From the NCBI GenBank assembly GCA_013388645.1, contig JACAEV010000230.1:1716-65715 (forward strand): a DNA stretch of 64,000 nt, in the 5' to 3' direction. Position 1 is the stretch's first letter. Every line of letters begins with the position of its first letter. Below the pieces are notes generated by a model. That model saw only the letters and a list, made by a program, of their open reading frames with translations, was not told the origin of the DNA and made no database searches. This stretch comes from Syntrophaceae bacterium. GTDB taxonomy: Bacteria; Desulfobacterota; BSN033; UBA1163. The position numbers and the translations under genes are program-made. This document shows, in pieces, positions 45,343-63,945 of the stretch.

Positions 45343-45357
45343 CTTTACCTTAACCTT
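45343..45357. repeat. Telomere-like CTTTACCTTAACCTT motif, copy upstream of lepB
   Basis: A member of the CCTTAA/CCTAA repeat family seen at five intergenic sites in the window. Confidence 0.5.
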
Positions 45358-45387
45358 GTGGTCGAAGCCTTTTTAAATGAGGAAATC

Positions 45388-46020
45388 ATGGGGAAGAAAA
45401 ATTTTTTTAAAGAATATGTTGAGCCCATAGCGCTTGCGATTTTAATTGCTTTGTTTATTCGAGCCTTCGTGATTCAGGCGTTTAAAATTCCATCGAGTTC
45501 CATGGAACCCACCTTATGGGTGGGAGATCATCTTTTGGTCAATAAATTTATTTATGGGATCAGAATTCCCTATTCAGATAAAATTTTTGGTAAAAGCAAA
45601 AAAATTTGGGAATGGAAAAAACCTCAGCGGGGGGAGGTGATCGTTTTCATCTTCCCGAAAGATCGCTCAAAGGATTTTATTAAACGGGTCATTGCCACCG
45701 AGGGTGAAAAAGTTGAGATCATTCGAAATAAAATTTATATCAATGGGCAATTGATCGATGACCCATGGGGTCACTTCTCGATGCCCAGATCCTCCATTGA
45801 GGACTATGCTCCTGTCAAAGTCCCTCCGAACTGCTTATTTGTTATGGGGGATAATCGTGATAATAGTCAAGATAGCCGGTTTTGGGGCTTTGTGAATGTG
45901 GATGAGGTCAAAGGGAAAGCCTTTATCATCTATTTCTCTGGTCCCAATATGTTGAATATATTACTCCCATGGACATGGGGAGATATTATGTGGACGAGGT
46001 TCGGTAAGCTGATTCATTAA
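45388..46020 (+). CDS. lepB: Signal peptidase I
   Basis: TM helix, catalytic S (PSSSMEPTL), K (KRVIATEGE) and GDNRDNSQDSR box. Track GTG at 45358 is replaced by ATG 45388 with a GAGGAAA RBS. Confidence 0.8.
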   Translation: MGKKNFFKEYVEPIALAILIALFIRAFVIQAFKIPSSSMEPTLWVGDHLLVNKFIYGIRIPYSDKIFGKSKKIWEWKKPQRGEVIVFIFPKDRSKDFIKRVIATEGEKVEIIRNKIYINGQLIDDPWGHFSMPRSSIEDYAPVKVPPNCLFVMGDNRDNSQDSRFWGFVNVDEVKGKAFIIYFSGPNMLNILLPWTWGDIMWTRFGKLIH

Positions 46021-46976
46021 GGGTGGGACTTCTTTTTTCGAAAGACGTTTTCCTTGACCCATTGGATATCTTTTTCAATTTGTTGGATGAGTTGGGCAGG
46101 TGAATCGAAACGGATTTCATCGCGGATTCTCCTTTTAAAACTGACTTGAATCTCTTCCCCATAAAGGTTGTGATGAAAATCCAAAATATAGACCTCAAAG
46201 GAGAGGGGATTCCCTTTCCCTGTTTTTTCAGTTGCAAACGTAGGATTCCAACCGATATTCGCCAGACCGTTTAATTGTTGTTGACGCCACTCCACCTCGA
46301 CAGCATAAACCCCGGCTTTTGGATAGAGTTCATCAGAGATTTCCAAATTGGCTGTGGGAAAACCTAATGTTTTTCCCCTTTGGGCGCCTTCTACCACTTT
46401 TCCAATGATCGGATAATCTCGCCCCAATAAGATCGAAGCTTCTTCAATCTCTCCTGCTTGAATCAGATTTCTTATTTTCGAGCTACTGACGATGGTCGAG
46501 CCAATTTTTAAGGGCTCTATCACTTCCACGTCAAAGTGAAATACCTTTCCTGCCTCTTCGAGGGTCAGAGCGTCTCCCTTTTGACCTTGGCCGAAATGAT
46601 AATTATATCCGATGATCACTTTTTTGACGTTTATCTTGTCCACCAATATCGTTTTGATAAAATCAAGGGGTGTCATTTCTGAGAAGGTCAGTGAAAATTC
46701 TATGCAAAGAACCGTATGAACACCAGATTTTTCGATCAAGATCATCTTTTTCCTGTAAGGGGAAAGGAGAGGCAAGAATTTTTCAGGAGCAAGGACTTTG
46801 AGCGGGTGAGGTTCGAATGTGATGACTACTCCCTCTCCATGACTTTTCAATGCCTCTTCTTTCACCCTCTGGAATATTTTCTGATGCCCTAAATGGACGC
46901 CATCGAAATTCCCTAACGTGACCACAGGGTTTTTGAAGGACCTCTTTAAATTTTCAATCCCATTGATAATTTCCAT
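46017..46976 (-). CDS. ribF: Bifunctional riboflavin kinase / FAD synthetase
   Basis: FMN adenylyltransferase N-terminus (VVTLGNFDGVHLGHQ) and riboflavin kinase C-terminus (GFPTANL...E.Y.LDF). Confidence 0.85.
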   Translation of the reverse strand: MEIINGIENLKRSFKNPVVTLGNFDGVHLGHQKIFQRVKEEALKSHGEGVVITFEPHPLKVLAPEKFLPLLSPYRKKMILIEKSGVHTVLCIEFSLTFSEMTPLDFIKTILVDKINVKKVIIGYNYHFGQGQKGDALTLEEAGKVFHFDVEVIEPLKIGSTIVSSSKIRNLIQAGEIEEASILLGRDYPIIGKVVEGAQRGKTLGFPTANLEISDELYPKAGVYAVEVEWRQQQLNGLANIGWNPTFATEKTGKGNPLSFEVYILDFHHNLYGEEIQVSFKRRIRDEIRFDSPAQLIQQIEKDIQWVKENVFRKKKSHP

Positions 46977-47052
46977 GGTAATTCCTTGACTTTAACCCAA
47001 AAAAATATAAAATAGTATCGTAATATTTTCAATGTGATGAGTCATGAATGAG

Positions 47053-47072
47053 GGTTACCCTAACCTTAACCC
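47053..47072. repeat. Telomere-like GGTTACCCTAACCTTAACCC motif, immediately 5' of tRNA-Leu
   Basis: A CCCTAACCTTAACCC copy of the same repeat family; it ends 10 nt before the tRNA. Confidence 0.5.
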
Positions 47073-47082
47073 AGGTTTAAAA

Positions 47083-47171
47083 GCCGAAGTGGCGGAATTG
47101 GTAGACGCGCTAGATTCAGGGTCTAGTGGGAAGTAGTTCCTGTAGGGGTTCGAGTCCCCTCTTCGGCACCA
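47083..47171 (+). tRNA. tRNA-Leu (anticodon CAG)
   Basis: Acceptor stem GCCGAAG/CTTCGGC, D-arm GCGG..CGCG, anticodon stem CTAGA/TCTAG with loop TTCAGGG, long variable arm, T-arm AGGGG-TTCGAGT-CCCCT, and encoded CCA. Confidence 0.85.
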
Positions 47172-47203
47172 AAGCAAAAATTCCATCATTCCAGTTACAT
47201 ATT

Positions 47204-49258: not shown

Positions 49259-49267
49259 TATAATAAC

Positions 49268-49312
49268 GGAACCGGCACCTCAACCTCAACCTTAACCTTA
49301 ACCTTAACCTTA
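49268..49312. repeat. Tandem hexamer array (CCTCAA)2(CCTTAA)5 in the divergent mrcA/GT2 intergenic region
   Basis: Perfect head-to-tail 6-nt units, 35 nt upstream of the candidate -35 of the GT2 gene. Confidence 0.8.
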
Positions 49313-49346
49313 ACCTTAACCTTTTTACTCTTTTCTGTATAAATTC

Positions 49347-49374
49347 TTGACTTCTCATTGGGAAGGATATAATA
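49347..49374 (+). promoter_or_regulatory. Candidate sigma-70 promoter for the glycosylation gene cluster
   Basis: TTGACT (49347-52) and TATAAT/ATAATA (49368-49375) with a 15-17 nt spacer. GAGGAG RBS before ATG 49431. Confidence 0.45.
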
Positions 49375-49430
49375 ATAAGTCAATTTTTTCAACTTTTCTA
49401 AGGCGCTTGAAAAAAAGAGGAGATAAGTGA

Positions 49431-50387
49431 ATGGAAGGCAGATTAGAAAAGACTCTTTCGATTCTTATCCCAGTTTTTAATGAGGAGGGAAATCTTTCTC
49501 TCCTATATCAAAAGCTCGATGGGGCATTAAAAAAAGTAAAGACAGCCTATGAAATCATTTTTATCGATGATGGGAGTTCTGATGGAACATTGGAAATTTT
49601 GCTTGATCTTAGAGAAAAAAATCCAAACATCAAGGTAATCAGCTTTTCTCGCAATTTTGGACAAACCGCCGCCCTCAGCGCGGGCATTGACTTCTCGAAA
49701 GGAGATATCATCATACCGATGGATGGTGACCTCCAGAATGACCCAGAGGACATTCTCATTCTTCTCCAAAAAATTGATGAAGGATATGATGTGGTCAGTG
49801 GATGGCGAAAAAGCAGAAAGGATCCTTTTTTGACACGTCGGCTACCCTCTATCGTTGCTAATAAAATCATTTCATGGATCGGAGGTGTCCCACTTCATGA
49901 TTATGGGTGTACCATGAAGGCTTATCGAAGAGATATTTTAAAGAATATTCGCCTTTATGGAGAAATGCATCGATTTATCCCAATCTACGCCCAATGGATC
50001 GGGGCACGGGTATCCGAGATTCCAGTCCACCATTTTTCAAGAGGATATGGAGCATCGAAATATGGAATGAGCAGGGTTTTTAAAGTTATTTTGGATCTTC
50101 TGGTGATCAAGTTCCTTCTTAACTATTCTCAGAAACCCATCTATGTTTTTGGAGGGATAGGACTTTTAATGATCTTGGGTGCTTTTTGTGCTGGCTTGTA
50201 TGCACTCTATCTTAAATTTTTTGAGGAAACGTCTTTTATTTTAACTCCTCTTCCATTACTTTGTGCCCTTCTTCTGCTATTGGGCTTTCTTTCAATCCTG
50301 ATGGGTTTCTTAGCTGAAATCTTGACTCGAATTTATTATGAATCGCAAGGGAAACCTACCTATCAAATCAAAGAAACGATTCCATAA
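49431..50387 (+). CDS. GT2 polyprenol-phosphate sugar synthase (DPM1/GtrB/ArnC-like) with two C-terminal TM helices
   Basis: SILIPVFNEE, DDGSSDGT and MDGDLQNDP (DxD) motifs. The C-terminal membrane anchor is typical of Und-P-hexose synthases. Confidence 0.8.
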   Translation: MEGRLEKTLSILIPVFNEEGNLSLLYQKLDGALKKVKTAYEIIFIDDGSSDGTLEILLDLREKNPNIKVISFSRNFGQTAALSAGIDFSKGDIIIPMDGDLQNDPEDILILLQKIDEGYDVVSGWRKSRKDPFLTRRLPSIVANKIISWIGGVPLHDYGCTMKAYRRDILKNIRLYGEMHRFIPIYAQWIGARVSEIPVHHFSRGYGASKYGMSRVFKVILDLLVIKFLLNYSQKPIYVFGGIGLLMILGAFCAGLYALYLKFFEETSFILTPLPLLCALLLLLGFLSILMGFLAEILTRIYYESQGKPTYQIKETIP

Positions 50388-50610
50388 TTACCTATGTTTG
50401 TGGGTCACTCCTGCTTACCAAAGGTGAGCATGGAGGATATGAAATTGATATCATCTATCAACAATAAACGTTCAGCGATGAACAACGAACATTTCATCAT
50501 CCTCTGTGTTCACTGTTCACTGTACCTCGTTTATTGTATGTCACGAGCTCTAAAACGAGTATCGTCACCGTCAGCCTTTTTGATAGTATTGCGGATGCGG
50601 GCACAATAGT

Positions 50611-52524
50611 ATGTGCGGTATTGTCGGACTCCTCACATCAAAAGCAAATGATATTCCAGAAAATAATATTTTGGAAGAAATGCGAGATGTTCTGGTTCAT
50701 CGAGGCCCTGATGATGTGGGGGAATATATCCGCTCTTTAGATGAAAAAGGGCCTTTTGTTTTCTTGGGTCACCGACGCCTGAGTATCATTGATTTAATTG
50801 GCGGCCACCAGCCTCTTTCTAATGAGGATGGAACGGTATGGGTGGTTTTCAATGGAGAGATTTATAATTTCAAAGAATTAAGAGAAACATTGAAGGGGAG
50901 AGGGCACCAATTCCGAACTCAATCCGATACCGAAGTCATTGCCCATGCTTATGAAGAATATGGGGAAGGCTGCTTTCAGTATTTCAATGGAATGTTTGCA
51001 ATTGGAATCTGGGATGAAAAATGGAATCGACTGGTTTTGGCAAGAGATCGCTTGGGGGAAAAACCCCTTTATTATAGTGACATCAATGAGACCTTTCTTT
51101 TCGCCTCTGAATTGAAAACAATGATGCTTTATCCTCTCTTTACCAGAAAGGTCGATTCCCTTTCCTTAATGAAGTATCTCTTCTACGAATTCATCCCCTG
51201 TCCTCATACGATTTTTAATGATGCAAAAAAACTTCCGCCTGCTTCTTATCTCACCTGGCACAGAGGCAAAACGGAAGTTAAGGAATACTGGTCTCCTTTG
51301 GATTTCCTAAAAGGAGAAGAAAATTTTTCAGAGACCGAAGCTATCTTGAGAATAAGGGAGCTTTTGAGGCAATCTGTGAAACGCAGACTTATCAGTGATG
51401 TTCCTCTCGGAATTTTCCTTAGCGGAGGGATTGATTCGAGTACTGTTGCTGCGTTGGCTCAGAAAGAGAATCCAGGGAAAATTGAAACATTTTCAATCGG
51501 TTTCGAAGATGCTTCATTTGACGAGTCAAAATATGCCTCGCTGGCATCCAAACATATTGGGACTAAACATCACGAACAGACCATGACCCCTACTGATTTA
51601 TTAAATATCGTCCCTCAACTTCCAGATATTTTAGATGAACCCATGGCAGACGCTTCTATCCTGCCGACCTATCTCCTTTCTAAATTTACGCGAGAATATG
51701 TGAAGGTGGCACTCGGAGGAGATGGAGGAGATGAACTTTTCGCAGGATATCCCACTTACTTAGCTCATAAAATTGCAAGGCAGTATGAGCAAATTATTTC
51801 TCCCCTCCACCCCATGCTCACTTTCTTAGGTAGCCTTCTTCCCGTTTCGGATAACAATATCAGTTTTGACTTCAAGGTAAAAAAATTCCTTTCCGGCATT
51901 GGTTATTCAGATAGCATTCGTAATTTTATTTGGCTCGGGTCTTTTTCCTTCCCGGATTTCCTTCAAGTTCTATCTCCAAAGATCACTCCTCAGTTTGATC
52001 GAGTCCGATTGGTGGAAGAAATTTTGGCGTATGAAAGGACTTATCCACTGAAAGACCGGACAAGCCTTCTCCAATTTCTTGACCTAAAACTATATCTTCA
52101 GGAAGCTATTTTGGTTAAAGTGGATCGTGCCAGTATGGCATGTTCATTGGAAGTGAGAGCCCCCTTTCTTGATTACGAGTTCGTTGAGTTTATCATGGGA
52201 CTTCCTTCTTCAATGAAGCTAAAAAGATTCACCTCAAAATATATATTGAAAAGGGCTATAGAATCTTACTTACCTAAGGAGGTGGTTTATCGGAAGAAAA
52301 AAGGGTTTGGAGTTCCGATTGCCAAATGGGTGAAGGGCCCCTTGAAAGAACTGTTTGGTGATCTCCTTTCTCCTGACCGAATTGGAAGAGAGGGATTCCT
52401 CAATCCTGAATATGTGACATCTCTTCTCCAAGATCACCTAATGAATAAAAGAGATAATAGAAAGCAACTCTGGACTTTATTGGTTTGGGAACTTTGGGTA
52501 AACCGATATCAACCCTTACTTTGA
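50611..52524 (+). CDS. asnB: Asparagine synthase (glutamine-hydrolysing), AsnB family amidotransferase
   Basis: N-terminal nucleophile MCGIVG, PP-loop SGGIDSS, and a C-terminal synthetase domain. 637 aa. Confidence 0.85.
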   Translation: MCGIVGLLTSKANDIPENNILEEMRDVLVHRGPDDVGEYIRSLDEKGPFVFLGHRRLSIIDLIGGHQPLSNEDGTVWVVFNGEIYNFKELRETLKGRGHQFRTQSDTEVIAHAYEEYGEGCFQYFNGMFAIGIWDEKWNRLVLARDRLGEKPLYYSDINETFLFASELKTMMLYPLFTRKVDSLSLMKYLFYEFIPCPHTIFNDAKKLPPASYLTWHRGKTEVKEYWSPLDFLKGEENFSETEAILRIRELLRQSVKRRLISDVPLGIFLSGGIDSSTVAALAQKENPGKIETFSIGFEDASFDESKYASLASKHIGTKHHEQTMTPTDLLNIVPQLPDILDEPMADASILPTYLLSKFTREYVKVALGGDGGDELFAGYPTYLAHKIARQYEQIISPLHPMLTFLGSLLPVSDNNISFDFKVKKFLSGIGYSDSIRNFIWLGSFSFPDFLQVLSPKITPQFDRVRLVEEILAYERTYPLKDRTSLLQFLDLKLYLQEAILVKVDRASMACSLEVRAPFLDYEFVEFIMGLPSSMKLKRFTSKYILKRAIESYLPKEVVYRKKKGFGVPIAKWVKGPLKELFGDLLSPDRIGREGFLNPEYVTSLLQDHLMNKRDNRKQLWTLLVWELWVNRYQPLL

Positions 52525-52551
52525 TTTTATCTTATCAGTGTCAATGCTCCC

Positions 52552-54495
52552 ATGAATCTCTTCTTGCAATTTGTTTATATGATTGCCTTTGGCGCAATGT
52601 GTTGGTCTGTGGGGGACCTACTCCTCAAGGTTTTCTTGAGAAAAAAAGTTGTTTTGCCCACTCTGGGACGTTATAGCCTTTCTTTTGCTACAGGAAATGT
52701 CGCGCTCTCTTATTTTCTAACGGGACTCGGGTTCTTCGGAGGTTTTGTATCTACAGTACTTTGGACAGTATTTATTGGAGGAATTGGAATAACCCTATGG
52801 CATATCGCTGAAGAGTTCATAAAATACACTCGTTCGAGGTCTTCCAGTCAAGAAAGTCAGGAGAAAATAGAAAATAAAGGGGAAAGGGTTCTATTTATTC
52901 TTTTAATGGTAATCATTGGGTTATTTTTTATCTCCGCGATTCTGCAAGCCGCAGCACCACCTTACCTCCGCGACTCTTTGGTCTACCACCTCTTGTGCCC
53001 AAAAGAATATTTGAAAATAGGCCATCTCATGCATATCGAAGGAAATATTTTTTCAGCCTTTCCCAAAGGGCATGAAGTTCTCATGACCCTCCTTTTGTTT
53101 ATAGGAGGTGACCGCGCTGCCCAGGGATTCTCTATTCTCCAACAACTTGCTGCGATTGGGGAACTCTATGGATTGACATACCTAATGGCTGGGAGTTTGT
53201 CAGCTTCGCTCTGTGTCATCGGATACGCCACCGTCCCTCCTGTCATCTACTATTCAGGGTGTGGCTACGTTGAACCAGCTCTTCTCATGACCCTTGGGGC
53301 AAGTCTTTTGGTCTTATTCCTTTTGTTTGAATTCAGAAAAGAAAATAATCTATCTGATAACGAGGGCTTGGAATATATTTCATTACTTGGATTCCTGGCG
53401 GGTTGGTTGCCTGCACTCAAGTATAATGGATTAATTTACCTTGGGTTGATCGGCTTGACCCTCTTGTGGGGATATAGGAGAGTTGCTTTTAAAAAAGCAC
53501 TGAATGTGATTGGGGTGTTTAGCCTTTCTGCGGCACCTGGTTTTTCTTGGATGTCCTGGAACTGGCTAACCCTGGGAAATCCTGTTTATCCCATGGCCTG
53601 GTTTCTTTTTGGCGGAAAAGGTTGGGATGAAACCAGGGCCGTTGCAATGTCGCAGTATTTTGATATTTACGGCATGGGAAGGAATCTATTAGACTACCTA
53701 TTATTACCCTGGCGTTTGGCCTTCTCAGGAAGATTTGATACGATTCGTTTTGATGGCACCATTGGACCATTTCTCATCATTGTTCTTATTTTAGTGATAG
53801 CTGCGATCATAAAATTGATTCATCAGGGATTGAACAACAAGGTGACGAAAGAGACAGGTTTAATGTTCCTTGTATCAACTCTTTTCTTCATATTTGGAAC
53901 CCAGCAGGTTAGGTTCTGGCTCCCTTCTCAAATGTTAGCATGTGTCTTCGTTGCCCCTATCGTAGGGTTACTTGTGGATTTTACTAAAACAAGAAGGATG
54001 TTAAAAATATCCATCATCTTGATTTTGGCTGCGTCACTCGCTTGGAATATATGGTTTCTCGGTAAGCAATTTCTGACGGTTGGTTATTATAGGCCAGTCT
54101 TAGGTATGGAGAAAGAGAAAGATTTTCTAATTCGAAAAGTTCCAGGTTACCCTGCCATAGAATTTATCAACCAGAATCTACCCGCAAGTTCTCATTTGCT
54201 CTGTGTATGGACAGGCACATATGGTTATTACTTAAACCGCAAATATTACTCCGACACTTTCATAGAAGACTTTACTATAAAAAAATTCTTTCAGGCTTCA
54301 ATGAATGGCGAAGAATTATCTCAGAAGTTGACCCAGGCTGGATATACTCACCTATTTTTGAATTTTTTGATATTTGAAAAAAACATGGGGCAAAACGAAC
54401 GACTTATCTTCGATGACTTTTTATTGAAAGGGACCCGTGAGCTTTTTCGATTCCAGAACTTCAGAGTTTTGGAGATTTTCTCCTCATCCCATTGA
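52552..54495 (+). CDS. Large polytopic membrane protein, possible GT-C-type glycosyltransferase or glycan-processing protein
   Basis: At least 12 predicted TM helices over ~480 aa, then a soluble C-terminal domain. No named family recognised. It sits inside the GT2/GT-C cluster. Confidence 0.45.
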   Translation: MNLFLQFVYMIAFGAMCWSVGDLLLKVFLRKKVVLPTLGRYSLSFATGNVALSYFLTGLGFFGGFVSTVLWTVFIGGIGITLWHIAEEFIKYTRSRSSSQESQEKIENKGERVLFILLMVIIGLFFISAILQAAAPPYLRDSLVYHLLCPKEYLKIGHLMHIEGNIFSAFPKGHEVLMTLLLFIGGDRAAQGFSILQQLAAIGELYGLTYLMAGSLSASLCVIGYATVPPVIYYSGCGYVEPALLMTLGASLLVLFLLFEFRKENNLSDNEGLEYISLLGFLAGWLPALKYNGLIYLGLIGLTLLWGYRRVAFKKALNVIGVFSLSAAPGFSWMSWNWLTLGNPVYPMAWFLFGGKGWDETRAVAMSQYFDIYGMGRNLLDYLLLPWRLAFSGRFDTIRFDGTIGPFLIIVLILVIAAIIKLIHQGLNNKVTKETGLMFLVSTLFFIFGTQQVRFWLPSQMLACVFVAPIVGLLVDFTKTRRMLKISIILILAASLAWNIWFLGKQFLTVGYYRPVLGMEKEKDFLIRKVPGYPAIEFINQNLPASSHLLCVWTGTYGYYLNRKYYSDTFIEDFTIKKFFQASMNGEELSQKLTQAGYTHLFLNFLIFEKNMGQNERLIFDDFLLKGTRELFRFQNFRVLEIFSSSH

Positions 54496-54498
54496 AAT

Positions 54499-56046: not shown

Positions 56047-56124
56047 AACAAGCTTATTATTACACCCTGAACATAGCCCTTTTACAAAACAGGCCTCTTG
56101 ACCGTCAGGTAAGGTCTGCAATAT

Positions 56125-57684
56125 TCATTCAATCGGAATATCAATTCCTTTCTCTCCGGGTGATTTGGGATCCCAAAGAAAAAGATACATGGAGGCATCG
56201 CTCGGGAATCTCCTAAACATAGCAAAACTTCCATCAAAATATCCTTTCAAAACACAGGATGGATTTTTCTTCAATTCATCTACCCCAGGCCCTTTTCCGA
56301 GAAGAATCCATAACCGGTTTCCATCTTCGACATATTGAGCATAGGGAATATTCGAATGATAGATAGGAAAATTTCTGTTTTGGGCAATGAGAGACACTTT
56401 AAACTCAAACAGCTTCCCTGGTTCTTTCCATGAGAAGGGAATAACATAATGCCGATTTACTGGATCAACATTGAAATAATGGAGAATCCCAGGAATGTAA
56501 GTATATGTTCCAACAACAAGCTTATCTCCATCTCGAAGGTGGTTATTTAAATAATTCACTAAGCTCCTAAAATCCTGCTTCTCAGAATGATAATAAGGGA
56601 AAAGAATTATGAGATTTGACAAAATAAACAGGATGAGAAATAAATGCTTTGGTCCCAGCCGAATAAATCCTTTTAATTTTTCAAATTTTAATTCTATTGT
56701 ATCAAGGGATAGGTACAAAGTTATAAGAAATAAAGGAAGAAAATTGATATAGTATCTGGATGTAATAAACTGGGTCACCTTTAGTAATTTACAGTATAAA
56801 TAAAGTCCTCCGATAGGGAGAATAAAAAGGGCTACGAGGATCAAACTGTTTTTTTTATTTTTAGAAAAAATTGGGAAAAGAATTAATAGAATCAGGGAAA
56901 CAATGCTCAAAGGCGGAAGTGGTGCCCAATCATTAAACATCCCTAACATGATATTTGGAAAAGAGTCAATATCTTGAATAGTAATAGGATCCATAACCGG
57001 TTGACCTTTGTAGTTCAATACAATAAAAAGAATCCACGGAAAACAAAGAGATAGGGTTAATCCGATTAACAGGGAAAGGGAAGAAATAATGGATTTCGTT
57101 TTCTTTTCATTCAATTGATAGAGCCAAACCAATTGGCTAAAAACAATAAATATAATAGTGCTGTAACTCATGTAAAATAAAGTGGCAAAAAAGAAAGCGG
57201 CAGGAATAAGGTATCGCTTTTCTGATGTCTTAAGGTGCCTCATTAATAAATAAAGAGCTGCCATCCCAAAAAACATGATCAAAGAATACATTCGGCCATC
57301 CTGGGAAAAGTAAATATGGTATGTCATGAAAGTCAAAGATAGGGTACATGGAAGGGCGATGGCAGAAGAAAACAATCTTGACAAGAAATAAAACATTGGC
57401 ATTGAAAGGACTCCGAAGATTAAAGGGAGAATGCGAAGGTCTTTTTCTGGCTTTGTAAATGGATAGAATGTGTGAGTGAGAACAAAAAAAAGTGGAGGGT
57501 GAAGATAGGTTGGGTTGTCTTTGTAATATTTCAATTGTCCCTGGATGTCATCTCTTGAATCATTATAAGTATGGATTTCATCAATCCAGAGAGATTTTTG
57601 GTCGAAGGTATAGAATCGCAGGGCGAATCCTATAATGAGACATAGAATAAGAATGAGGATATCTTTCTTCACAATTTTATTCAT
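56125..57684 (-). CDS. GT-C family glycosyltransferase (GT39/ArnT/PMT_2-like), paralog 2
   Basis: Same architecture as paralog 1. The ends are near-identical (...ASMYLFLWDPKSPGEKGIDIPIE). Confidence 0.65.
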   Translation of the reverse strand: MNKIVKKDILILILCLIIGFALRFYTFDQKSLWIDEIHTYNDSRDDIQGQLKYYKDNPTYLHPPLFFVLTHTFYPFTKPEKDLRILPLIFGVLSMPMFYFLSRLFSSAIALPCTLSLTFMTYHIYFSQDGRMYSLIMFFGMAALYLLMRHLKTSEKRYLIPAAFFFATLFYMSYSTIIFIVFSQLVWLYQLNEKKTKSIISSLSLLIGLTLSLCFPWILFIVLNYKGQPVMDPITIQDIDSFPNIMLGMFNDWAPLPPLSIVSLILLILFPIFSKNKKNSLILVALFILPIGGLYLYCKLLKVTQFITSRYYINFLPLFLITLYLSLDTIELKFEKLKGFIRLGPKHLFLILFILSNLIILFPYYHSEKQDFRSLVNYLNNHLRDGDKLVVGTYTYIPGILHYFNVDPVNRHYVIPFSWKEPGKLFEFKVSLIAQNRNFPIYHSNIPYAQYVEDGNRLWILLGKGPGVDELKKNPSCVLKGYFDGSFAMFRRFPSDASMYLFLWDPKSPGEKGIDIPIE

Positions 57685-57804
57685 TCGGGCAGTCCCACTT
57701 TAAGATGCTCCATTTTTTATAGCAATAATTAAGCCAATTGATTTCTTACGGGAGTGGACATTGGGATTTTGAAAGGCCCCTTCAATATCATAAGGCATCG
57801 CTTT

Positions 57805-58596
57805 TTAATTTTTTTTAAGACGAATCACATATCTTAATGGAAACCAAAAAAAAGGAATTCTCTTTACCCGGGTCACCTTGAAAGACTTTGCAAAAAGGCT
57901 ACGCCACATCTTCAATGTGTAAGTATGGAGATGCCATTCATCCTCCATTCTTTCAGGCATTTCTCCATACTCCGCCTTTCTACGGAGCAACCAGTTAAAT
58001 ATTCCAATCTTTATCAAGATCCTTTTGGTTCGATTAATCCAAATTTCATTGGGTATTGAGATGACTGCTACACCATTGAAGTCTAAAGTCCTTTTCATTT
58101 CATGGATCGCAATCAAAGGATCTAAGAGGTGTTCAAGAACCTCCGAACAAATAATATGTGTAAATATTTCATCTTTACAAGGAAGATTCTGAACATCTGC
58201 CTGGAAGAAGTGTACGACCCCTTTAAGTTTCTGGTTTGCTTTGCCCAGGATAAAACTGGAAATATCAACACCAAATAACTTTCCTTCGGTTACATCTTTG
58301 ATTACGTTACCCGCCCCACAGCCGACTTCGATAACACGGTCATCTTTATTAGTTTTCAATAGTTTGATGATAGTTTTAACCCTTTTACGTTCGATAAAAC
58401 GAACAAAGGGATTGGGATGCTTATGAAATGCATCTGGATCATACTTTTTCACCATCAATTCATTCCATTGTCTAAATTCTTCAGGTTTGATTCTGTTCAA
58501 GAAGATCCCTTCTTTTCTAATGAAATCTAATGAAACTGAATATACATAAAGAAATGTTGGAATTAATTTCTTTATGAACTGCTTGGTTTTTATCAT
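57805..58596 (-). CDS. Class I SAM-dependent methyltransferase
   Basis: Motif I VIEVGCGAGNV, motif II (D...VQNLP) and motif III (IICSEVLEHL). ATG at 58596 has an AAAAGGA RBS; the track start is 58671. Confidence 0.65.
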   Translation of the reverse strand: MIKTKQFIKKLIPTFLYVYSVSLDFIRKEGIFLNRIKPEEFRQWNELMVKKYDPDAFHKHPNPFVRFIERKRVKTIIKLLKTNKDDRVIEVGCGAGNVIKDVTEGKLFGVDISSFILGKANQKLKGVVHFFQADVQNLPCKDEIFTHIICSEVLEHLLDPLIAIHEMKRTLDFNGVAVISIPNEIWINRTKRILIKIGIFNWLLRRKAEYGEMPERMEDEWHLHTYTLKMWRSLFAKSFKVTRVKRIPFFWFPLRYVIRLKKN

Positions 58597-58873
58597 AATC
58601 AATCCTTTTAAGTCAAACCTATAAATATTTACAGAGATTTGAACCAGAAAGATTACTTGTATATGAATCATTGGAATCCATCTTTAAGGATTTTGTTTTT
58701 AGAGACTATTGTTAACAAAAATTGTCATTAAAAAGACAAAAAGTGTGAATTATTCTCGAATTTAAAGACTGAAAGAACTCACTTGTTATATTTTCAAAAA
58801 ATAAAGAGTAATAAAAATGAAAGAACATTAAATAGTTATATCTTTTTATCAAATATTCTATAAGCATCAAGTG

Positions 58874-58891: not shown

Positions 58892-59034
58892 AATCATAAA
58901 CATAAAAATTTTAAGAAGGAGGTGAATATAAAAGATAAAAGAGCAGATAGTTTTATAAGATGTTATAGGAGTAGGTGAACACGTTACCAAAAAAAACCAG
59001 ACAAACTAAATAGACCAAAAAGGAGGTTTTAATT

Positions 59035-59466
59035 ATGTTAAGGAGAGAAAAAGGTTTTACATTGATTGAGTTGTTGATCGTTATTGCCATCATCGGTATT
59101 TTGGCCGCTATCGCCATTCCGATGTATAAGACACAGACAATCAAAGCGAAAATGACAGAAGTCACAAATGGGATGAGTAATGTGGCAAGCGCAGTGGCTG
59201 CCTATATGCAGGAAACAGGCGGTTGGCCTACTGCTGGATCTGCAGCACTAATTCAGAGTAGCTTAGGTGTATCAACCGGAGCCCTATCAAGAATTTCCTC
59301 TCTCGCAGTAAATCAAGGTGTAATTACTGCAGTGGTAACAGCTATTGATGCAACCGTTGATGGCAGAAATTTAGTTATGACTCCGACTTCAAATGCAGAT
59401 GGCTCTATAATCTGGAACTGGACCACTACAAACAATATGCCACCTGCGTATATTCCTAAACGGTAA
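59035..59466 (+). CDS. pilA: Type IVa major pilin (PilA-like)
   Basis: Prepilin leader MLRREKG|[22 protein letters not shown] with Glu at +5. AAAGGAGG RBS. The C-terminal segment is Ser/Thr-rich (TPTSNADGS...WTTTNN). Confidence 0.85.
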   Translation: MLRREKGFTLIELLIVIAIIGILAAIAIPMYKTQTIKAKMTEVTNGMSNVASAVAAYMQETGGWPTAGSAALIQSSLGVSTGALSRISSLAVNQGVITAVVTAIDATVDGRNLVMTPTSNADGSIIWNWTTTNNMPPAYIPKR

Positions 59467-59496
59467 TTTAAAAATTCGTGGAGTTTAACTTTCTCT

Positions 59497-59552
59497 TTTG
59501 TTGGTGCTCGAAGACTGTTAATTTCTTCGGGCACCAACAAATCTTTTTTATT
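59497..59552 (+). terminator. Rho-independent terminator between pilin 1 and pilin 2
   Basis: TTGTTGGTGCTCGAAG...CTTCGGGCACCAACAA stem (one G-U) followed by ATCTTTTTTATT. Confidence 0.7.
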
Positions 59553-59589
59553 GTGAAAGTAAATCTTTACTGTGCAGTAAGGATTTAAA

Positions 59590-60033
59590 GTGAAAAAAAA
59601 TAACCCAGGCTTTACTCTGATTGAATTATTAGTGGTTATTGCAATCATAGGCATTTTGGCCGCTGTTGCGCTTCCAATGTACAGAGGCTATACGGTTATG
59701 GCTAAATTGTCTGAAGTGGAGAATGCAATGTCCACTGTTGCAAGTGGCCTTACAGGATATTATCACGAACAAAATTCTTGGCCTGATTGTCCTACGATAA
59801 ATGAGGTCAGAAACAGTTTGGGGGTGTCATTGGGGGCAATCTCACGGGTTTCTGCATTATCTGTTTCAGGTGTGAATGGAATGATTACAGCAACAATACA
59901 AGATATTCATTTTATGGTGGACGGAAAAACATTAACATTGACACCGAGTACAAGTAACGATAGTTCAATAACTTGGAATTGGGGATGGTCCCTTGATTTT
60001 CCTCCTCAGTTTAGACCTAAAAGTGGCAGGTAA
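59590..60033 (+). CDS. Type IVa pilin paralog
   Basis: MKKNNPG|[25 protein letters not shown] start with AAGGA RBS. C-terminal S/T-rich [14 protein letters not shown] parallels pilin 1. Confidence 0.8.
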
Positions 60034-60035
60034 AG

Positions 60036-60425
60036 ATGAAATCAAAAAAAGGAATTACATTGATAGAATTATTGGTCGTGATCGTGATTGTAGGTGTTCT
60101 TGCAGCCATAGCTGTTCCTCTTTATACGAATTATATGCAAAGAGCCCGGAGAGCCGATGCCAAAACAGCATTGGAGCAGTTAAGGGCAGCACAAGAGATG
60201 TTTAGGGCAGAAAGAGGGGTTTATTCCACGGATATCGCCCAGCTGAGAGGAACATGGGGGGTACCTGCTGTATCCGGAGATTATGCTATATTATTAAACT
60301 CAGCAACCGCAACCACTTTTCTTGGGCAAGCTGATCCGAGTGGAAGTCCAAGGCAGGCGAGTGACGGAAGCTTATTTATTAATCAGGATGGGGTTAAAAC
60401 CCCTGCGGACAAATGGGCCAAATGA
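60036..60425 (+). CDS. Minor pilin, PilE/FimT-like
   Basis: MKSKKG|[22 protein letters not shown]; YTNYMQRARRADAKTALEQL resembles the PilE/FimT-type minor-pilin motif. It overlaps the pilin 2 stop. Confidence 0.7.
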   Translation: MKSKKGITLIELLVVIVIVGVLAAIAVPLYTNYMQRARRADAKTALEQLRAAQEMFRAERGVYSTDIAQLRGTWGVPAVSGDYAILLNSATATTFLGQADPSGSPRQASDGSLFINQDGVKTPADKWAK

Positions 60426-60563
60426 AGTATTTTCCATGGATTAAAGGAATGGTGGAAGAATGGAATGATGGGAAAGGAAAGGGCAGGGGGAATAATGGAA
60501 GGGTGGAAGGATGGGTAAAATAACATAAAACATAGGGCATAGAGTATAGAGCTAACTAAATAG

Positions 60564-60598
60564 AAAGCAAGATAATGATTTATCTTGCTTTTTTTATT
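60564..60598 (+). terminator. Rho-independent terminator after the pilin operon
   Basis: AAGCAAGATA...TATCTTGCTT stem followed by TTTTTTTATTT. Confidence 0.6.
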
Positions 60599-60619
60599 TA
60601 ATCGATATAATAAGGAATA

Positions 60620-60974
60620 ATGAAACCAGAAATACAGGAAAAAAGCGGCCATTGGGCAAAGGCGAGGATGCGCAGTCATTCTTCACGGTTATTACAGAAC
60701 AACACACGATATTGATCTCCTTGTGGATTCTTCCATAGAGAATATAAAACGATTAAAGAAAGCCTTTCAGGATTTATTTAAATCTGATGAAATATCTGAA
60801 GTTCGCGATGTCGATATAGATCAGTATGCCGTTGTCAGATTCGCTCCGGAATCCAAAGAGATCGTGATTGACATGATCGGTAAGATAAAGAGGACCTGCT
60901 CTTTCTATTGGGGGAAAAAGAATACCTTGAAAAATAATTATAACTATTTATCATTTAACGTCCATATTTCCTAA
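60620..60974 (+). pseudogene. Nucleotidyltransferase-like gene interrupted by a +1 frameshift at an A6 tract
   Basis: ATG at 60620 (MKPEIQEK) is in frame A. After the A6 run at 60639-60644, frame B encodes AAIGQRRGCAVILHGYYRTTHDIDLLVDSS..., an NTase-like G..R.....DIDLLV motif. Frame B has no ATG before GTG 60723. Confidence 0.4.
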
Positions 60975-60986
60975 AAGGTCATATGC

Positions 60987-61397
60987 ATGGCTGAATTCAA
61001 AACAGAGCAAGTAAAGGACAAGCTGGCGCCAATATTTAAGGAAGAAGGGCTACAGCTCGTTTTGCTTTTTGGATCTGTTGCTTCGGGAAAAGAATACAAA
61101 AAAAGCGATATCGACCTTGGATTCTTATTTGATAGACCTATTGATATATTAGCCCTTACTAATCGAGTGATTCAGCTTTTGAAAACGGATAAAGTTGATG
61201 TGGTTGATTTAAGGCGTGCAAGTCCCCTTTTGAAATTTTCAGCAATCCGACAGGGAAAACTGCTTTTTGAACAGACCTTGGGTCTTTTCAATGTCTTTCA
61301 GTCTTTAACTTTCCGAATATATGTTGATACAAAAAAATTACGTGATGCGCAGGAAAAGGCAATTCAAAATTTTCTTGGAGAAAGAGGACTTATATGA
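60987..61397 (+). CDS. mntA: MntA-type nucleotidyltransferase antitoxin (type VII TA)
   Basis: LFGSVASGKEYKKSDIDLGF gives the GS...DxD Pol-beta NTase motif. 136 aa. Confidence 0.8.
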   Translation: MAEFKTEQVKDKLAPIFKEEGLQLVLLFGSVASGKEYKKSDIDLGFLFDRPIDILALTNRVIQLLKTDKVDVVDLRRASPLLKFSAIRQGKLLFEQTLGLFNVFQSLTFRIYVDTKKLRDAQEKAIQNFLGERGLI

Positions 61398-61822
61398 GTC
61401 CCATCGAAGCCCAAATCATCAAAAGGAAACTTGCTGTTATTATAGAAAATCTTAAGACTCTTGAGCCGATTAAGAGCATGAATGCAGATGAATATTTACA
61501 GGATTTATTCAAAAGGAAAGCAACTGAAAGGCTTTTACAAGAATTGATCGAAGCAGCCGTTGATATAAATATACACATAATTGTTGAGACAGGACATACC
61601 GTTCCTGATGATTATTACGAAAGTTTTATAAAAGTAGGGGAACTTAAAATCATTTCTTTAGACCTTGCCCAGAAACTTGCACCCTCAGCGGGTCTTAGGA
61701 ACAGATTGGTCCATGAATATGATCGGCTTGAACATTCCATGGTACTCAAGGCTGTAAATATGGCTGAAGAACTATACTCGAGATACGTTAAAGAAATCAA
61801 TGATTATATTTCAATTGTGTAG
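61394..61822 (+). CDS. hepT: HepT-type HEPN toxin (DUF86)
   Basis: RNRLVHEYDRLE is the R-x4-H HEPN motif. It has a 4-nt ATGA overlap with mntA. Confidence 0.8.
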   Translation: MSPIEAQIIKRKLAVIIENLKTLEPIKSMNADEYLQDLFKRKATERLLQELIEAAVDINIHIIVETGHTVPDDYYESFIKVGELKIISLDLAQKLAPSAGLRNRLVHEYDRLEHSMVLKAVNMAEELYSRYVKEINDYISIV

Positions 61823-62243
61823 ACCCCTTAGTGCTTGAAAACATAAAAGCAATAGAAAAAGCTGAGGTTCGATAAACCTGTAGAAAGTCCAAGGTTCTAA
61901 TTTTTACCATACCCTCCTGAATTCCTGGCTTCCTTATAAATAAAATCCTGATAAATGGCATAAAGTTTGCTTTTTCAAGTAAATAATTATTTCATTATTC
62001 CTCATTAATTTATTTTTCTTTATAAAATTGAATAGTTAAACGATTTTATTTTTTGCTCGTAAATGTTCGGAATATGAACAGTGATCAGAAATTGTCCTCA
62101 ATTTACAAAAGTTGTTAAAAAAAGTAACAAACCGATAGGAAGTTTGGATTATAGAAATGTTGGAATAATGGATTAATTACTCTTTTATTTCAGCCTTTTC
62201 AACATTTCATAATTCCAATATTCCATTATTCCGGAATTAAGAG

Positions 62244-63218
62244 ATGGATCTTTCCGTCATTATTCCAATGTTTAATGAATCTGAAAATGCAGAGTCTACC
62301 CTGAATCGGGTTAGGGAGGCATTGGCTTCTTTTAAAGGAAGCTATGAGATTATTCCTGTCAATGACGGAAGCCTCGATAATACTCTTGAGATTTTAAATA
62401 GATTGGCTGAAAAGGATGAGAAGTTAAAGATCGTTACTTACCCCAAAAATATTGGACGTGGAATGGCTTTAAGGAAGGGATTCCAGGAATCAAAAGGAGA
62501 GATTGTCGTATCGATTGACGCTGATTTGAGTTATGACCCTCATTATATATTTGATTTTATCAAGACATTTAAAGAAGGCCCTGAGATTGATTTTGTCCTT
62601 GCATCACCTTATATGCCTGGAGGAGGGGTTCAAAACGTCCCCTTTCATCGATTGTGGATCAGTAAATGGGGAAACAAGATACTTCGTTTAACCATGCCAA
62701 ACCGAATTTATACGTCAACCGGAATATTTCGTGCTTACCGTAAAAAAGTACTTGACTCACTTGAACTTGAGTCTGACGGGAAGGAGATCCATCTTGAGAT
62801 CCTTTCAAAAGCCTTAGCCTTAGGATTCCGGGTTAAGGAAATCCCTGCGGTTTTATCCAGCCGTAGAAAAGGAAAATCAAAATTTAAATTTAAAAAAACA
62901 GCCACTTCCCATCTCGTATTCTCTGCCTTTGAAAAGCCAATGATTATATTTGGTTTCCTTGGCCTGCTAACACTTGGGATTGGATTATTGATGGGTATAT
63001 ATGTAGCCTTTCTGAGATTTTCAGGAGGTTTAACGCCGGGAAGACCATTAATAACGTTTGTCATTTTGTTGATTTTAGGAGGAATTCAAATCCTTTCGTT
63101 TGGGTTTATCGCATTGCAAATAGTTTCGCTTAGAAGAGAAATATTGAGAATCCAGAAGGAAAATCTCGAATTGCGATGCGATCTGAAAGACCTGAATAAG
63201 GGTAATGGCCAGGGTTAA
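62244..63218 (+). CDS. GT2 polyprenol-phosphate sugar synthase paralog with C-terminal TM helices
   Basis: VIIPMFNES, NDGSLDNT and IDADLSYDP (DxD) motifs. Two C-terminal TM helices. The C-terminal codons (..GNGQG*) run into the telomere-like repeat. Confidence 0.75.
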   Translation: MDLSVIIPMFNESENAESTLNRVREALASFKGSYEIIPVNDGSLDNTLEILNRLAEKDEKLKIVTYPKNIGRGMALRKGFQESKGEIVVSIDADLSYDPHYIFDFIKTFKEGPEIDFVLASPYMPGGGVQNVPFHRLWISKWGNKILRLTMPNRIYTSTGIFRAYRKKVLDSLELESDGKEIHLEILSKALALGFRVKEIPAVLSSRRKGKSKFKFKKTATSHLVFSAFEKPMIIFGFLGLLTLGIGLLMGIYVAFLRFSGGLTPGRPLITFVILLILGGIQILSFGFIALQIVSLRREILRIQKENLELRCDLKDLNKGNGQG

Positions 63219-63945
63219 GATGCCCGTTTAGGTAAAGGTTTGGGTTAAGTCCAAACATAGAAAATAAATCATGGGTAAAGGTTAAGGTTAAGACGCCGGT
63301 TTAGTAGTTGGGTTAGGTAATTTGGCTTTAAATCTTTGGCCATAACCTTTACCCTTAACCAAACTGTCCTCCAAGCTTTAACCCTTTTAAGGGAAGACAA
63401 ACGGCATATTGGTAAGGGGCAAGATGCAAGTTTGGATAAGTTGTAAGTGAGGGAAAAATGCCGGACAAAGATAAGAAATCAATAACGAGTTTTAAAGGAC
63501 TGGAGGTCTATCAGAACTCTTACAAAACTTGTACTAAAGTCATGACCCCAATTATACCGAACTTACCTGAATCAGAAAAATATGATTTAAAACGTCAGTT
63601 AAGTGAATCCGTGAAGGCTATACCCAGATTAATCGCTGAAGGATACGCGAAAAGACACCAAAGGCAAGGATTTCAAAAATATTTAGATGATGCTATGGCA
63701 GAGTGCAATGAAACGATCGTAGGGATGGAAATGTGCAAGGATTTCTTTGGAAAATATGTTGACACTAAATTGTGTGAGGAGTTGGTTAGTATCTATGACG
63801 TTTGTGGAAGACAGCTTTACAGGTTGCGGGCTGCCTGGGGAAAGTTCCCAAGAGAAAAGAGTCTTCGGTCTAAAGGTTAGTATGCCTTAACCTATTGTCC
63901 TAACCTAAACGGGCCTCCTAACCTTAACCTTTACCTTGGCCAGAG
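63219..63945. mobile_element. Candidate small inserted element: four-helix-bundle gene bracketed by inverted telomere-like repeats
   Basis: Left arm GCCCGTTTAGGTAAAGG (63222-) and right arm CCTAACCTAAACGGGCctcCTAACCTTAACCTTTACC (63901-63936). They share the inverted 12-mer ACCTAAACGGGC/GCCCGTTTAGGT. A nested 90-nt palindromic unit lies at 63273-63360. Confidence 0.35.
63458..63880 (+). CDS. Four-helix-bundle protein (23S rRNA intervening-sequence protein family)
   Basis: 140 aa, all-helical, with GLEVYQNSYK...LIAEGYAKR...ECNET matching the TIGR02436/PF05635 pattern. Good GAGGGAAAA RBS. Confidence 0.75.
   Translation: MPDKDKKSITSFKGLEVYQNSYKTCTKVMTPIIPNLPESEKYDLKRQLSESVKAIPRLIAEGYAKRHQRQGFQKYLDDAMAECNETIVGMEMCKDFFGKYVDTKLCEELVSIYDVCGRQLYRLRAAWGKFPREKSLRSKG

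Follow-up and report, generated by a model that had tools for sequence, protein, structure and literature searches.

Short tandem units of the CCTTAA type recur between genes in the 64-kb stretch of DNA analysed in this study (the window), and their telomere-like appearance raises the question of what such repeats represent in the interior of a bacterial contig. We find that they are the arms of long hairpins, which either bracket a small gene of the PF05635 family or are free of genes. In the reading that we favour and consider probable, these arms belong to a family of elements resembling the intervening sequences (IVSs) of ribosomal RNA. Apart from one complete unit, this family would be represented in the window by hairpins lacking an ORF or by isolated arms, all related in sequence.

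The repeat family and its copies in the window

The strings quoted in the initial annotation are all found in the window, with CTTTACCTTAACCTT at 45343-45357, CCCTAACCTTAACCC at 47058-47072 and, as described, 10 nt 5' of a tRNA-Leu(CAG) gene (47083-47171), GGTAAAGGTTAAGGTTAAG at 63274-63292 and CCTAACCTAAACGGGCCTCCTAACCTTAACCTTTACC at 63899-63935. The tandem array (CCTCAA)2(CCTTAA)5 is equally present, at 49278-49319 instead of 49268-49312, about 10 nt from where it had been placed. At up to two mismatches, AACCTTAACCTT matches 24 times in the window compared to 6.6 ± 2.6 times in shuffled sequences, a count reached by none of 100 shuffles, and the inner motif CTAAACSGGCNTCYTAACC is found six times at up to three mismatches, with 0.05 matches expected. 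The motif is thus more common than base composition predicts, and the shuffle tests refute a chance origin. It is also biased towards spacers, as 16 of the 24 matches reside outside long ORFs, a part that makes up 7.9% of the window (binomial 8e-13, where matches inside one array are non-independent). These 16 fall into six of 30 spacers, five of which hold copies of the family. Together, these observations support a genuine dispersed intergenic family.

The units of the window (CCTTAA, CCTCAA and CCTTTA) are mixed and repeat with a period of 6 nt, as determined with TRF. They constitute the outer parts of arms of about 45 nt with the consensus ACC..TAACC..CYAAACSGGCnTCYTAACCTTAACCTTTACC, which are paired as inverted repeats, an arrangement that the initial annotation had missed. 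This organization is illustrated in the ORF-less hairpin A (45248-45357, not assigned to a strand) in the spacer between a CN-hydrolase gene and lepB, whose left (45248-45287) and right arms (45317-45357) are both matched by an nhmmer arm profile (E 3e-8 and 1e-8) and both contain the inner motif, forming an inner stem of GCCCGTTTGG and CCAAACAGGC. Its predicted RNA fold amounts to -41.5 kcal/mol on the plus and -48.8 kcal/mol on the minus strand (z -3.3), while for single hairpins the gain over shuffled sequences is generally modest (z about -1.4).

Two further copies are one-armed remnants or expansions. The first (47053-47075, plus strand), identified by 12-mer matches, is a short remnant or mini-hairpin of the form GGGTTA..TAACCC, which is located in a leader between a promoter-like site (46986-47013) and the tRNA-Leu gene, folds weakly (-9 kcal/mol) and is shorter than the arm profile can detect. 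The second is the array (CCTCAA)2(CCTTAA)5CCTT (49278-49323, plus strand; TRF 49277-49323, period 6, 7.8 copies), for which a fold test at the site revealed neither a local partner arm nor a fold. It sits in the spacer of the divergent genes for PBP1A and GT2, a short distance upstream of the promoter-like site TTGACT-18-AATAAT (49347-49376) of the GT2 operon, with its 3' end about 25 nt from the -35-like hexamer. Where two tandem PMT_2 genes meet, the sequence 56072-56106 (plus strand; nhmmer E 4e-4) may be a further single arm in degenerate form. It carries the inner motif at three mismatches and is 71% identical to an arm of hairpin A, which is weak evidence for another copy.

The PF05635 cassette and its orthologous loci

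The complete unit is found at 63201-63936, where G-rich AGGTTA-type hexamers with the motif GCCSGTTTRG precede a PF05635 ORF, which is followed by the motif CYAAACSGGC and C-rich TAACCT-type hexamers. The outer 5' arm D (63201-63246, G-type, unstranded) overlaps the stop codon of a GT2 gene (62244-63218) and forms across the ORF an inverted repeat (I6) of 33 nt and 82% complementarity with arm C, with which it pairs in the minimum free energy fold of 63195-63945 (z -2.5 for the whole cassette). Between arm D and the ORF lies the ORF-less hairpin B+G (63272-63385, unstranded; -34.6 kcal/mol, arm profile E 2e-11 for B) with a G-type arm at 63274-63318 and a C-type arm at 63338-63385, followed by a third G-type arm D' (63409-63457, plus strand), which is placed immediately 5' of the start codon and provides a Shine-Dalgarno-like GAGGG motif. 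The ORF (63458-63880, plus strand) encodes a four-helix-bundle protein of 140 residues that matches PF05635 (E 3.4e-16, profile positions 2-105 of 106) and TIGR02436 (E 3e-13), the family of the '23S rRNA intervening sequence protein', S23p. A profile of the family matches the PDB entries 2gsc, whose protein is XCC0516 of Xanthomonas campestris, and 2rld. The 3' element (63868-63936, unstranded) combines a local remnant of a G-type arm, TCTAAAGGTTAG, which overlaps the stop codon, with the C-type arm C (63892-63936; profile E 1e-10), which in turn is 90% complementary to B over 31 nt (I4). All stems of the cassette are imperfect. IVSs of the S23p type are inserted in helix 25 or 45 of 23S rRNA, whereas the cassette resides outside rRNA, with a glycosyltransferase gene on one side and a second protein gene on the other, and the window contains no rRNA match.

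The order of GT2 gene, arm, ORF and arm is retained in two orthologous loci, L067 and L026. Arm D is conserved in both, and arm C is invariant at 31 of 32 nt across the three genomes, compared to an identity of 73-78% in the flanking coding DNA. In contrast, the segment 63236-63410 containing hairpin B+G is missing from both, so that relative to these loci the window has gained a hairpin of 175-220 nt, as well as the array at 49278, which is absent from the orthologous spacer of L067. The single 5' arm of L067 aligns to both D and D', which are diverged direct repeats at the insertion, where no target-site duplication was recognised. Conversely, the 3' element is a full hairpin in L067, of which the window lacks about 45 nt. 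The array 49278-49323 and the hairpin 63236-63410 thus coincide with indels, and among the suggestions of the initial annotation 'mobile-element scars' comes closest. Its placement of copies at both edges of the glycosylation/pilin block holds for the left edge, about 70 nt from the array, but not for the right, where the block (49392-58709, missing in L067) carries none.

The architecture in other bacteria and its possible origin

Across species-representative genomes, the 19-mer CYTAACCTTAACCTTTACC is present in 85 stretches, which come from many phyla, compared to 9-14 expected by chance in our own estimate, and roughly 65 of these are intergenic. PF05635 is the top family among the nearest-neighbour ORFs, although most neighbours are ordinary housekeeping genes. 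The distances to a partner arm are bimodal, with 23 solo hairpins at 7-152 nt and seven loci at 336-530 nt, five of which are confirmed PF05635 cassettes.

The association is much stronger when viewed from the gene. Among 61 PF05635 genes chosen by their protein alone (the 80-locus sample represents one PF05635 subfamily), 49 show an inverted-repeat score of at least 30, compared to a single one of 102 control intervals displaced by ±800 nt (Fisher 6e-29). In these 49, a G-rich tandem array of 6-8-nt units upstream is complemented by a C-rich array downstream. Clear inverted tandem arrays are absent at two loci of the window's own subfamily (L004 1632-2081 and L067 2962-3372). The CCTTAA-type hexamer is one of many units found in this arrangement. 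In Calothrix, (GGGTGTA)n precedes and (CTACACC)n follows the gene, similar layouts are found in Nostoc, Trichormus and Riemerella, and the cyanobacterial genes are thus flanked by STRR-like heptamers. Neighbouring genes are predominantly co-oriented (58:10 upstream and 56:10 downstream), with surface-polysaccharide and sdhB-like genes being frequent downstream. This repeat-gene-repeat layout in about 80% of the sampled genes from one branch of PF05635 appears to have been overlooked.

How could such elements function and spread? The cassette is located among co-oriented genes and our scans detected no promoter-like or terminator-like site in it, which suggests that it would be transcribed by read-through from its neighbours. 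On such a transcript, the two arms could pair as a stem of at least 30 bp around the ORF, with the innermost 5' arm bearing the ribosome-binding site. The long double-stranded stem would be a likely substrate of RNase III, as demonstrated for the Coxiella IVS, and cleavage would either excise the insert or insulate it from the host transcript. Among the transition mismatches in the arms, 150 G.U and 187 A.C pairs reveal no sense-strand G.U bias, and there is thus no positive signature of selection on RNA over DNA. ORF-less hairpins and single arms have probably originated by duplication, internal deletion and slippage, and arrays may change through slippage and local duplication. Since a PF05635 gene is enclosed by only about 10% of the hexamer hairpins, either direction of derivation is possible: cassettes may have given rise to solo hairpins, or the gene may have entered hairpins that already existed.

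Our results suggest that three puzzles that have been treated separately, the origin of rRNA intervening sequences, the role of the very widely distributed S23p-type four-helix-bundle genes and the dispersed hexamer and heptamer hairpins of many bacteria, such as STRR, are facets of one type of element, as about 80% of the sampled PF05635 genes reside in the loop of a short-tandem-repeat stem, usually within co-oriented gene clusters, with ORF-less copies of the arms scattered nearby. For genome annotation, this accounts for repeats of a kind that might interrupt assemblies or pass for microsatellites or G-quadruplex motifs. A bolder generalization, which we offer tentatively and which may well prove too broad, would regard PF05635 cassettes with polar inverted arrays of 6-8-nt units as 'free-living IVSs', a single pan-bacterial class that propagates itself and is self-insulating at the level of RNA. 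The rRNA IVSs would then be a special case, the ORF-less derivatives would include the cyanobacterial STRR hairpins and the G-rich heptamer pairs of Xanthomonas and Nostoc, and each subunit of the pentameric protein would recognise one unit of its cognate arrays.

Alternative explanations and relation to known systems

The excess of solo hairpins over cassettes (23 versus seven among loci with a partner, to which one-armed arrays add) could also reflect autonomous intergenic structured repeats similar to STRR, Xanthomonas GGGAATC pairs or REP/BIME, in which PF05635 genes merely land or are retained, and which would act on host transcripts by stabilisation, termination, insulation or translational coupling, or on DNA as cruciforms or G-rich structures. 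The prevalence of housekeeping neighbours, the T-run following the C-arm in several Nitrospirota loci and the description of STRR (PMC2670836) and of inverted heptamer pairs in Xanthomonas (PMC4692102) as gene-independent intergenic features all point in this direction. However, from the side of the gene the association is near-obligate, and three PF05635 genes on one contig (L010) bear three different units, which argues that the arms travel with the gene and not with the host site. Moreover, an intrinsic (Rho-independent) terminator consists of a short G+C-rich stem directly followed by a T-run, a canonical form that in our promoter and terminator scans is fitted by none of the window copies, no hairpin of which was called as terminator. 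We thus regard hairpins of independent function as unlikely.

In a reading that is compatible with the IVS-like family but by itself improbable, the arrays would be binding sites of a pentameric PF05635 protein with one 6-8-nt unit per subunit, akin to TRAP, which binds spaced triplets, and would serve autoregulation or the packaging of RNA or DNA. The period of the arms follows the protein clade, being 6 nt for closely related proteins and 7-8 nt for more distant ones, and arms typically contain 3-7 units. The entries 2gsc and 2rld were deposited with five chains each, the Xanthomonas protein was described as a homopentameric toroid (PMC4990558), and the family scores weakly, below the curated cut-off, against the model of the nucleic-acid-associated DGR protein Avd (E 1e-9 and 5e-5). 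Yet the correlation of period and clade could be plain co-inheritance, and the window protein shares its hexamer family with L010/L019-type proteins despite an identity of only about 24%.

A role in contingency or recombination, with slippage-prone microsatellites switching genes nearby or promoting the gain and loss of the glycosylation island, is even less probable for these tracts. In its favour, the array at 49278-49323 is close to a -35 hexamer and is missing in L067, which also lacks the block 49392-58709, and repeat numbers differ among Coxiella strains (PMC4990558). However, phase-variable simple sequence repeats are placed within an ORF or in the promoter spacer that separates the -35 from the -10 hexamer, and the array is found in neither position. 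The right edge of the island is devoid of copies, and since most copies are paired as hairpins instead of direct repeats, they cannot mediate deletions by simple recombination. Chance low complexity, a telomere-related role and a function as DNA-uptake sequence have a negligible probability despite the superficial likeness of the unit to CCCTAA and a ComP_DUS-like pilin encoded at 60036-60425, given the shuffle tests, the internal, paired and intergenic sites, the clustering of the 8-mer (16 occurrences in 64 kb) in contrast to the even spread of uptake sequences and the same architecture with unrelated units.

The telomere analogy of the initial annotation also fails in its details, as eukaryote-type telomeres are homogeneous TTAGGG-type arrays of one orientation at the ends of linear replicons, whereas the window arrays are internal, mixed, inverted and not composed of CCCTAA units. 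Avd and PF05635 are related four-helix-bundle proteins, but the latter scores far below the Avd cut-off and is accompanied by neither a reverse transcriptase nor template/variable repeats nearby. With REP/BIME and MITEs, the family shares multi-copy imperfect intergenic palindromes whose presence varies between relatives. Its arms are in contrast internally tandem-repetitive, and the associated gene encodes a four-helix-bundle protein instead of a transposase. A Pfam scan covering the 20 ORFs from 42060 to 63880 detected no RAYT or other transposase, nor did we recognise a target-site duplication.

The resemblance is closer for STRR and the Nostoc GGGGAYT and Xanthomonas GGGAATC arrays, which are likewise dispersed intergenic arrays of short units and often form convergent, hairpin-capable pairs of a G-rich followed by a C-rich array (PMC2670836; PMC4692102). 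No connection of the arrays with PF05635 genes was drawn in these studies, but a supplementary table lists a GGGAATC array overlapping the start of XCC0516, the PF05635 member with the structure 2gsc (PMC4692102). The family in the window differs by its 6-nt unit (AGGTTA family), a non-repetitive inner motif and a host that is neither a cyanobacterium nor a xanthomonad.

Closest are the S23p-type IVSs of Coxiella burnetii and Leptospira (PMC4990558). In Coxiella, an S23p ORF is enclosed by a stem of 28-bp terminal inverted repeats, which is cleaved by RNase III and whose 5' arm contains GACAGAT heptamers in tandem, with a copy number that varies (PMC4990558). Cleavage has been shown experimentally for rRNA IVSs with the same ORF family and would be predicted for the cassette, which differs from them by its location outside rRNA, by its extra nested arms (D, B+G and D') and by the ORF-less arm copies dispersed elsewhere. 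In both, however, a PF05635 ORF is located in the loop of an inverted-repeat stem within a total of about 430-740 nt, short tandem repeats of varying number make up the 5' arm, and the ribosome-binding region lies inside or adjoining the stem.

Organization of the repeat family

Telomere-like CCTTAA/CCTAA repeats had been described in the initial annotation as dispersed between genes, and every one of the listed strings is found in the window sequence, including the tandem array (CCTCAA)2(CCTTAA)5, which is real but located at 49278-49319, about 10 nt away from its assigned position (49277-49323 in TRF, with a period of 6 and 7.8 copies). With up to two mismatches, AACCTTAACCTT occurs 24 times in the window compared to 6.6 ± 2.6 times in dinucleotide shuffles, where none of 100 reached this number. 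This over-representation is not a product of chance. Long ORFs leave 7.9% of the window uncovered, and this fraction holds 16 of the 24 matches, distributed over 6 of 30 spacers, five of which contain copies of the family.

Repeat finding and alignment have shown that the hexamers constitute just the outer portion of arms of about 45 nt, present in both orientations, with the consensus ACC..TAACC..CYAAACSGGCnTCYTAACCTTAACCTTTACC. Their inner, non-repetitive motif CTAAACSGGCNTCYTAACC is found six times in the window with up to three mismatches, at an expectation of 0.05. An nhmmer profile of the arm detects five strong copies with E ≤ 3e-8 (45248-45287, 45317-45357, 63201-63244, 63274-63317 and 63892-63935), a weak copy at 56072-56106 and also the array at 49.3 kb. 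Two pairs of arms form complete hairpins, one directly following the stop codon of the CN-hydrolase gene (45248-45357) and a second at 63272-63385. The folding of individual hairpins shows a modest gain over shuffled sequences (z about -1.4), and the differences between copies in the inner stem are not cleanly compensatory. No Rfam family matches any copy in the window and a scan for intrinsic terminators calls none at the repeats. Interpretation of the repeats as telomeric is rejected. At about 1900-2100 of a contig labelled bacterial (Gammaproteobacteria MAG contig CBDALO010000139), we encountered an extended array of true CCCTAA/TTAGGG type (CCCTAACCCTAACCC...), which is unrelated to the repeat family of the window and which may either stem from eukaryotic DNA contaminating the bin or be genuinely telomere-like.

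The surrounding genes, as assigned by Pfam and ARAGORN, encode in this order a CN-hydrolase, lepB, ribF, tRNA-Leu(CAG), PBP1A, a glycosylation block, pilins, an MNT/HepT pair and a second GT2. The pilin genes (59035-60425) are three type IV paralogues with N-termini in common, the third of which matches ComP_DUS, the receptor fold for DNA uptake sequences; a role of the repeats as an uptake sequence tied to this pilin was rejected on account of their density and distribution. Between the pilin genes and GT2, a nucleotidyltransferase (Polbeta/MNT) and a HepT-like RNase (60987-61822) make up a type VII toxin-antitoxin module. A stretch of about 700 nt (5250-5952), which has no relation to the repeats, holds neither an ORF of at least 80 residues nor an Rfam match and is preceded by a terminator-like hairpin at about 5288-5318.

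The PF05635 cassette and its orthologous loci

The arms near the end of the window bracket, over a long range, an ORF at 63458-63880 that belongs to PF05635, the '23S rRNA intervening sequence protein' family (Pfam E 3.4e-16) and counterpart of TIGR02436 ('four helix bundle protein'). A profile of the family matches the PDB entries 2gsc (Xanthomonas XCC0516) and 2rld, and a search for the identical protein returned no record. The segment 63903-63935 of the 3' arm shows 82% complementarity to the 5' arm at 63201-63244 and 90% to 63274-63304. In the minimum free energy fold of 63195-63945 (-208.5 kcal/mol, z -2.5), the ORF is enclosed by a stem between the outer 5' arm and the 3' arm. The 3' end of the upstream GT2 gene falls within the 5' arm, and our scan detects neither a promoter-like nor a terminator-like site in the cassette.

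An orthologous locus of about 75% nucleotide identity is contained in L067 and L026, MAG contigs that carry the label Thermodesulfobacteriota and that both preserve the order GT2, 5' arm, PF05635 ORF, 3' arm and next gene, with ORFs sharing 86% and 76% of their amino acids with the window, respectively. In the 3' arm, 31 of 32 positions are invariant across the three genomes compared to 73-78% identity in adjoining coding DNA. The window carries an extra 175-220 nt (63236-63410), absent in both relatives, which contains the second complete hairpin and a duplicated 5' arm; at the 3' end it lacks about 45 nt of what is a complete local hairpin in L067. The (CCTTAA)n array is absent from the orthologous PBP1A-promoter spacer of L067. 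These insertions and deletions imply that copies have been gained, lost and resized over a short evolutionary scale.

Likewise missing in L067 is the 9.3-kb glycosylation block (49392-58709), which looks like an accessory glycosylation island. It encodes a GT2, an asparagine synthase, a 647-residue protein without a Pfam match, two tandem PMT_2 paralogues and a methyltransferase; from 54 kb on the G+C content drops to about 0.36, and in the syntenic region of L067 about 700 nt separate PBP1A from the pilin genes. Copies had been proposed to sit at both edges of an accessory glycosylation/pilin block; with the block delimited by comparison with L067, a copy is located near its left edge but not near its right edge.

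Distribution of arms and of inverted arrays around PF05635 genes

In species-representative genomes, the 19-mer CYTAACCTTAACCTTTACC was found in 85 stretches, compared to 9-14 expected by chance according to our own composition-based estimate. The hosts include Nitrospirota, Bacteroidota, Geobacteraceae, Omnitrophota, Scalindua, Ignavibacteriota, Chloroflexota and Firmicutes. About 18 matches lie within long ORFs (such as that coding for the UvrD motif LTLTFTNKAA) and about 65 are intergenic. Of 66 intergenic loci, 31 have a G-type partner upstream and 6 have one downstream, with opposite polarity. The partner distances are bimodal, with 23 solo hairpins at 7-152 nt and seven loci at 336-530 nt, five of which are confirmed PF05635 cassettes. 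PF05635 is also the commonest Pfam family in the nearest-neighbour ORFs, all others being unrelated housekeeping families. Phages as vectors of the repeat were ruled out, as viral contigs show no enrichment of the 19-mer (two matches compared to three for the reversed control).

Since inverted arrays of different units, such as GCGGTTA, TGCATGRT and GGTTGTAC, bracket other PF05635 genes in the loci examined, we sampled such genes from metagenome contigs by protein similarity alone, with a six-sequence alignment as query, which provided 80 loci (70 analysed) confined to one PF05635 subfamily. The 150-nt flanks reach an inverted-repeat alignment score of at least 30 in 54 of 70 genes, compared to 17 of 70 in a reversed-flank control. 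In a stricter test, this was the case for 49 of 61 genes compared to 1 of 102 intervals of the same length on the same contigs shifted by ±800 nt (Fisher 6e-29). The arms are tandem-repetitive, with a period of 6 nt in all close relatives (the AGGTTA/AGGTTG/AGGCTA family, as in the window) and of 7 or sometimes 8 nt around more distant PF05635 genes. Usually 2-40 nt separate the 5' arm from the start codon, and the beginning of the 3' arm lies at or just past the stop codon. Clear inverted tandem arrays are not seen around two genes of the subfamily to which the window ORF itself belongs (L004 1632-2081 and L067 2962-3372).

The layout recurs in named genomes, with (GGGTGTA)n upstream and (CTACACC)n downstream in Calothrix brevissima, (GGAGTCA)n upstream of a Nostoc punctiforme gene, and AAGGTTY upstream and AACCTTR downstream in Riemerella. 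One metagenomic cassette has the unit GGGACTG, which we take to be the reverse complement of the cyanobacterial STRR1 unit CCCCAGT. Two contigs (L010 4000-7312 and L019 617-3422) each contain three PF05635 genes with sugar-metabolism genes in between, and those of L010 each have their own flanking unit (TGCATGRT, GGTTGTAC-type and AGGTYG hexamers).

Genes adjacent to the cassettes are co-oriented in a ratio of 58:10 upstream and 56:10 downstream, and the downstream genes include nucleotide-sugar enzymes (about 15 of 65; epimerase/dehydratase, DegT and UDP-glucose dehydrogenase) and an sdhB-like Fe-S subunit (6 of 65), the latter suggesting recurrent insertion within sdh operons. The co-orientation and the recurrence of gene types thus place the cassettes inside operon-like arrays.

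The order of a G-rich followed by a C-rich arm is near-universal, with ratios of 48:5 for the upstream arm in sampled cassettes and 31:6 among loci of the 19-mer. Since reverse complementation leaves this polarity as it is, ORF orientation cannot account for it; it could reflect either the generating mechanism or a requirement for purine-rich sequence in the ribosome-binding region ahead of the ORF. A sense-strand G.U bias, hinted at by the early contexts GGTTGAGG opposite CCTTAACC, was not upheld in a wobble test for RNA-level selection over 54 stems (150 G.U compared to 187 A.C).

Proposed mechanism and relation to known systems

We infer that read-through combined with the formation of a duplex acting as RNase III substrate is the best supported mechanism. 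The cassette would be transcribed by read-through and its arms would pair into a long duplex, turning the insert into a substrate of RNase III and insulating the host transcripts. Because the ribosome-binding site lies within the innermost 5' arm (63409-63457), translation of the ORF may be gated. Slippage would make the arrays drift and arms would duplicate locally, and the ORF-less hairpins may be derivatives, comparable to MITEs in their relation to autonomous elements. Of the roles offered by the initial annotation, the mobile-element scar comes nearest to the evidence.

PF05635 was founded on ORFs within intervening sequences (IVS) of 23S rRNA. In Coxiella, such an IVS of 428 nt contains a 28-bp stem of terminal inverted repeats around the S23p ORF, is cut by RNase III in the stem, which takes away a Shine-Dalgarno-like region, and carries in its 5' region tandem GACAGAT heptamers of strain-dependent copy number (PMC4990558). 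STRR are intergenic tandem-heptamer hairpins of heterocystous cyanobacteria with unknown function (PMC2670836). In Xanthomonas, about 186 GGGAATC arrays were described, 70-75 of them as inverted pairs that are convergent, like the arms observed here, and potential G-quadruplexes were discussed; a supplementary table lists an array overlapping the start codon (-17) of XCC0516 (PMC4692102), which is the PF05635 protein of PDB 2gsc. Neither of the latter two papers mentions S23p or four-helix-bundle genes, and our search of open-access papers and preprints returned none tying STRR or heptamers to such genes and nothing relevant on the repeat strings themselves. The wider regularity, that most sampled PF05635 genes reside within inverted arrays of short repeats, appears undescribed so far and is directly testable. 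The window cassette shares the architecture of the Coxiella-type IVS, although it is not located in rRNA, the defining location of that element. The feature is a variant of the S23p-type IVS outside rRNA, accompanied by STRR-like, ORF-less hairpins.
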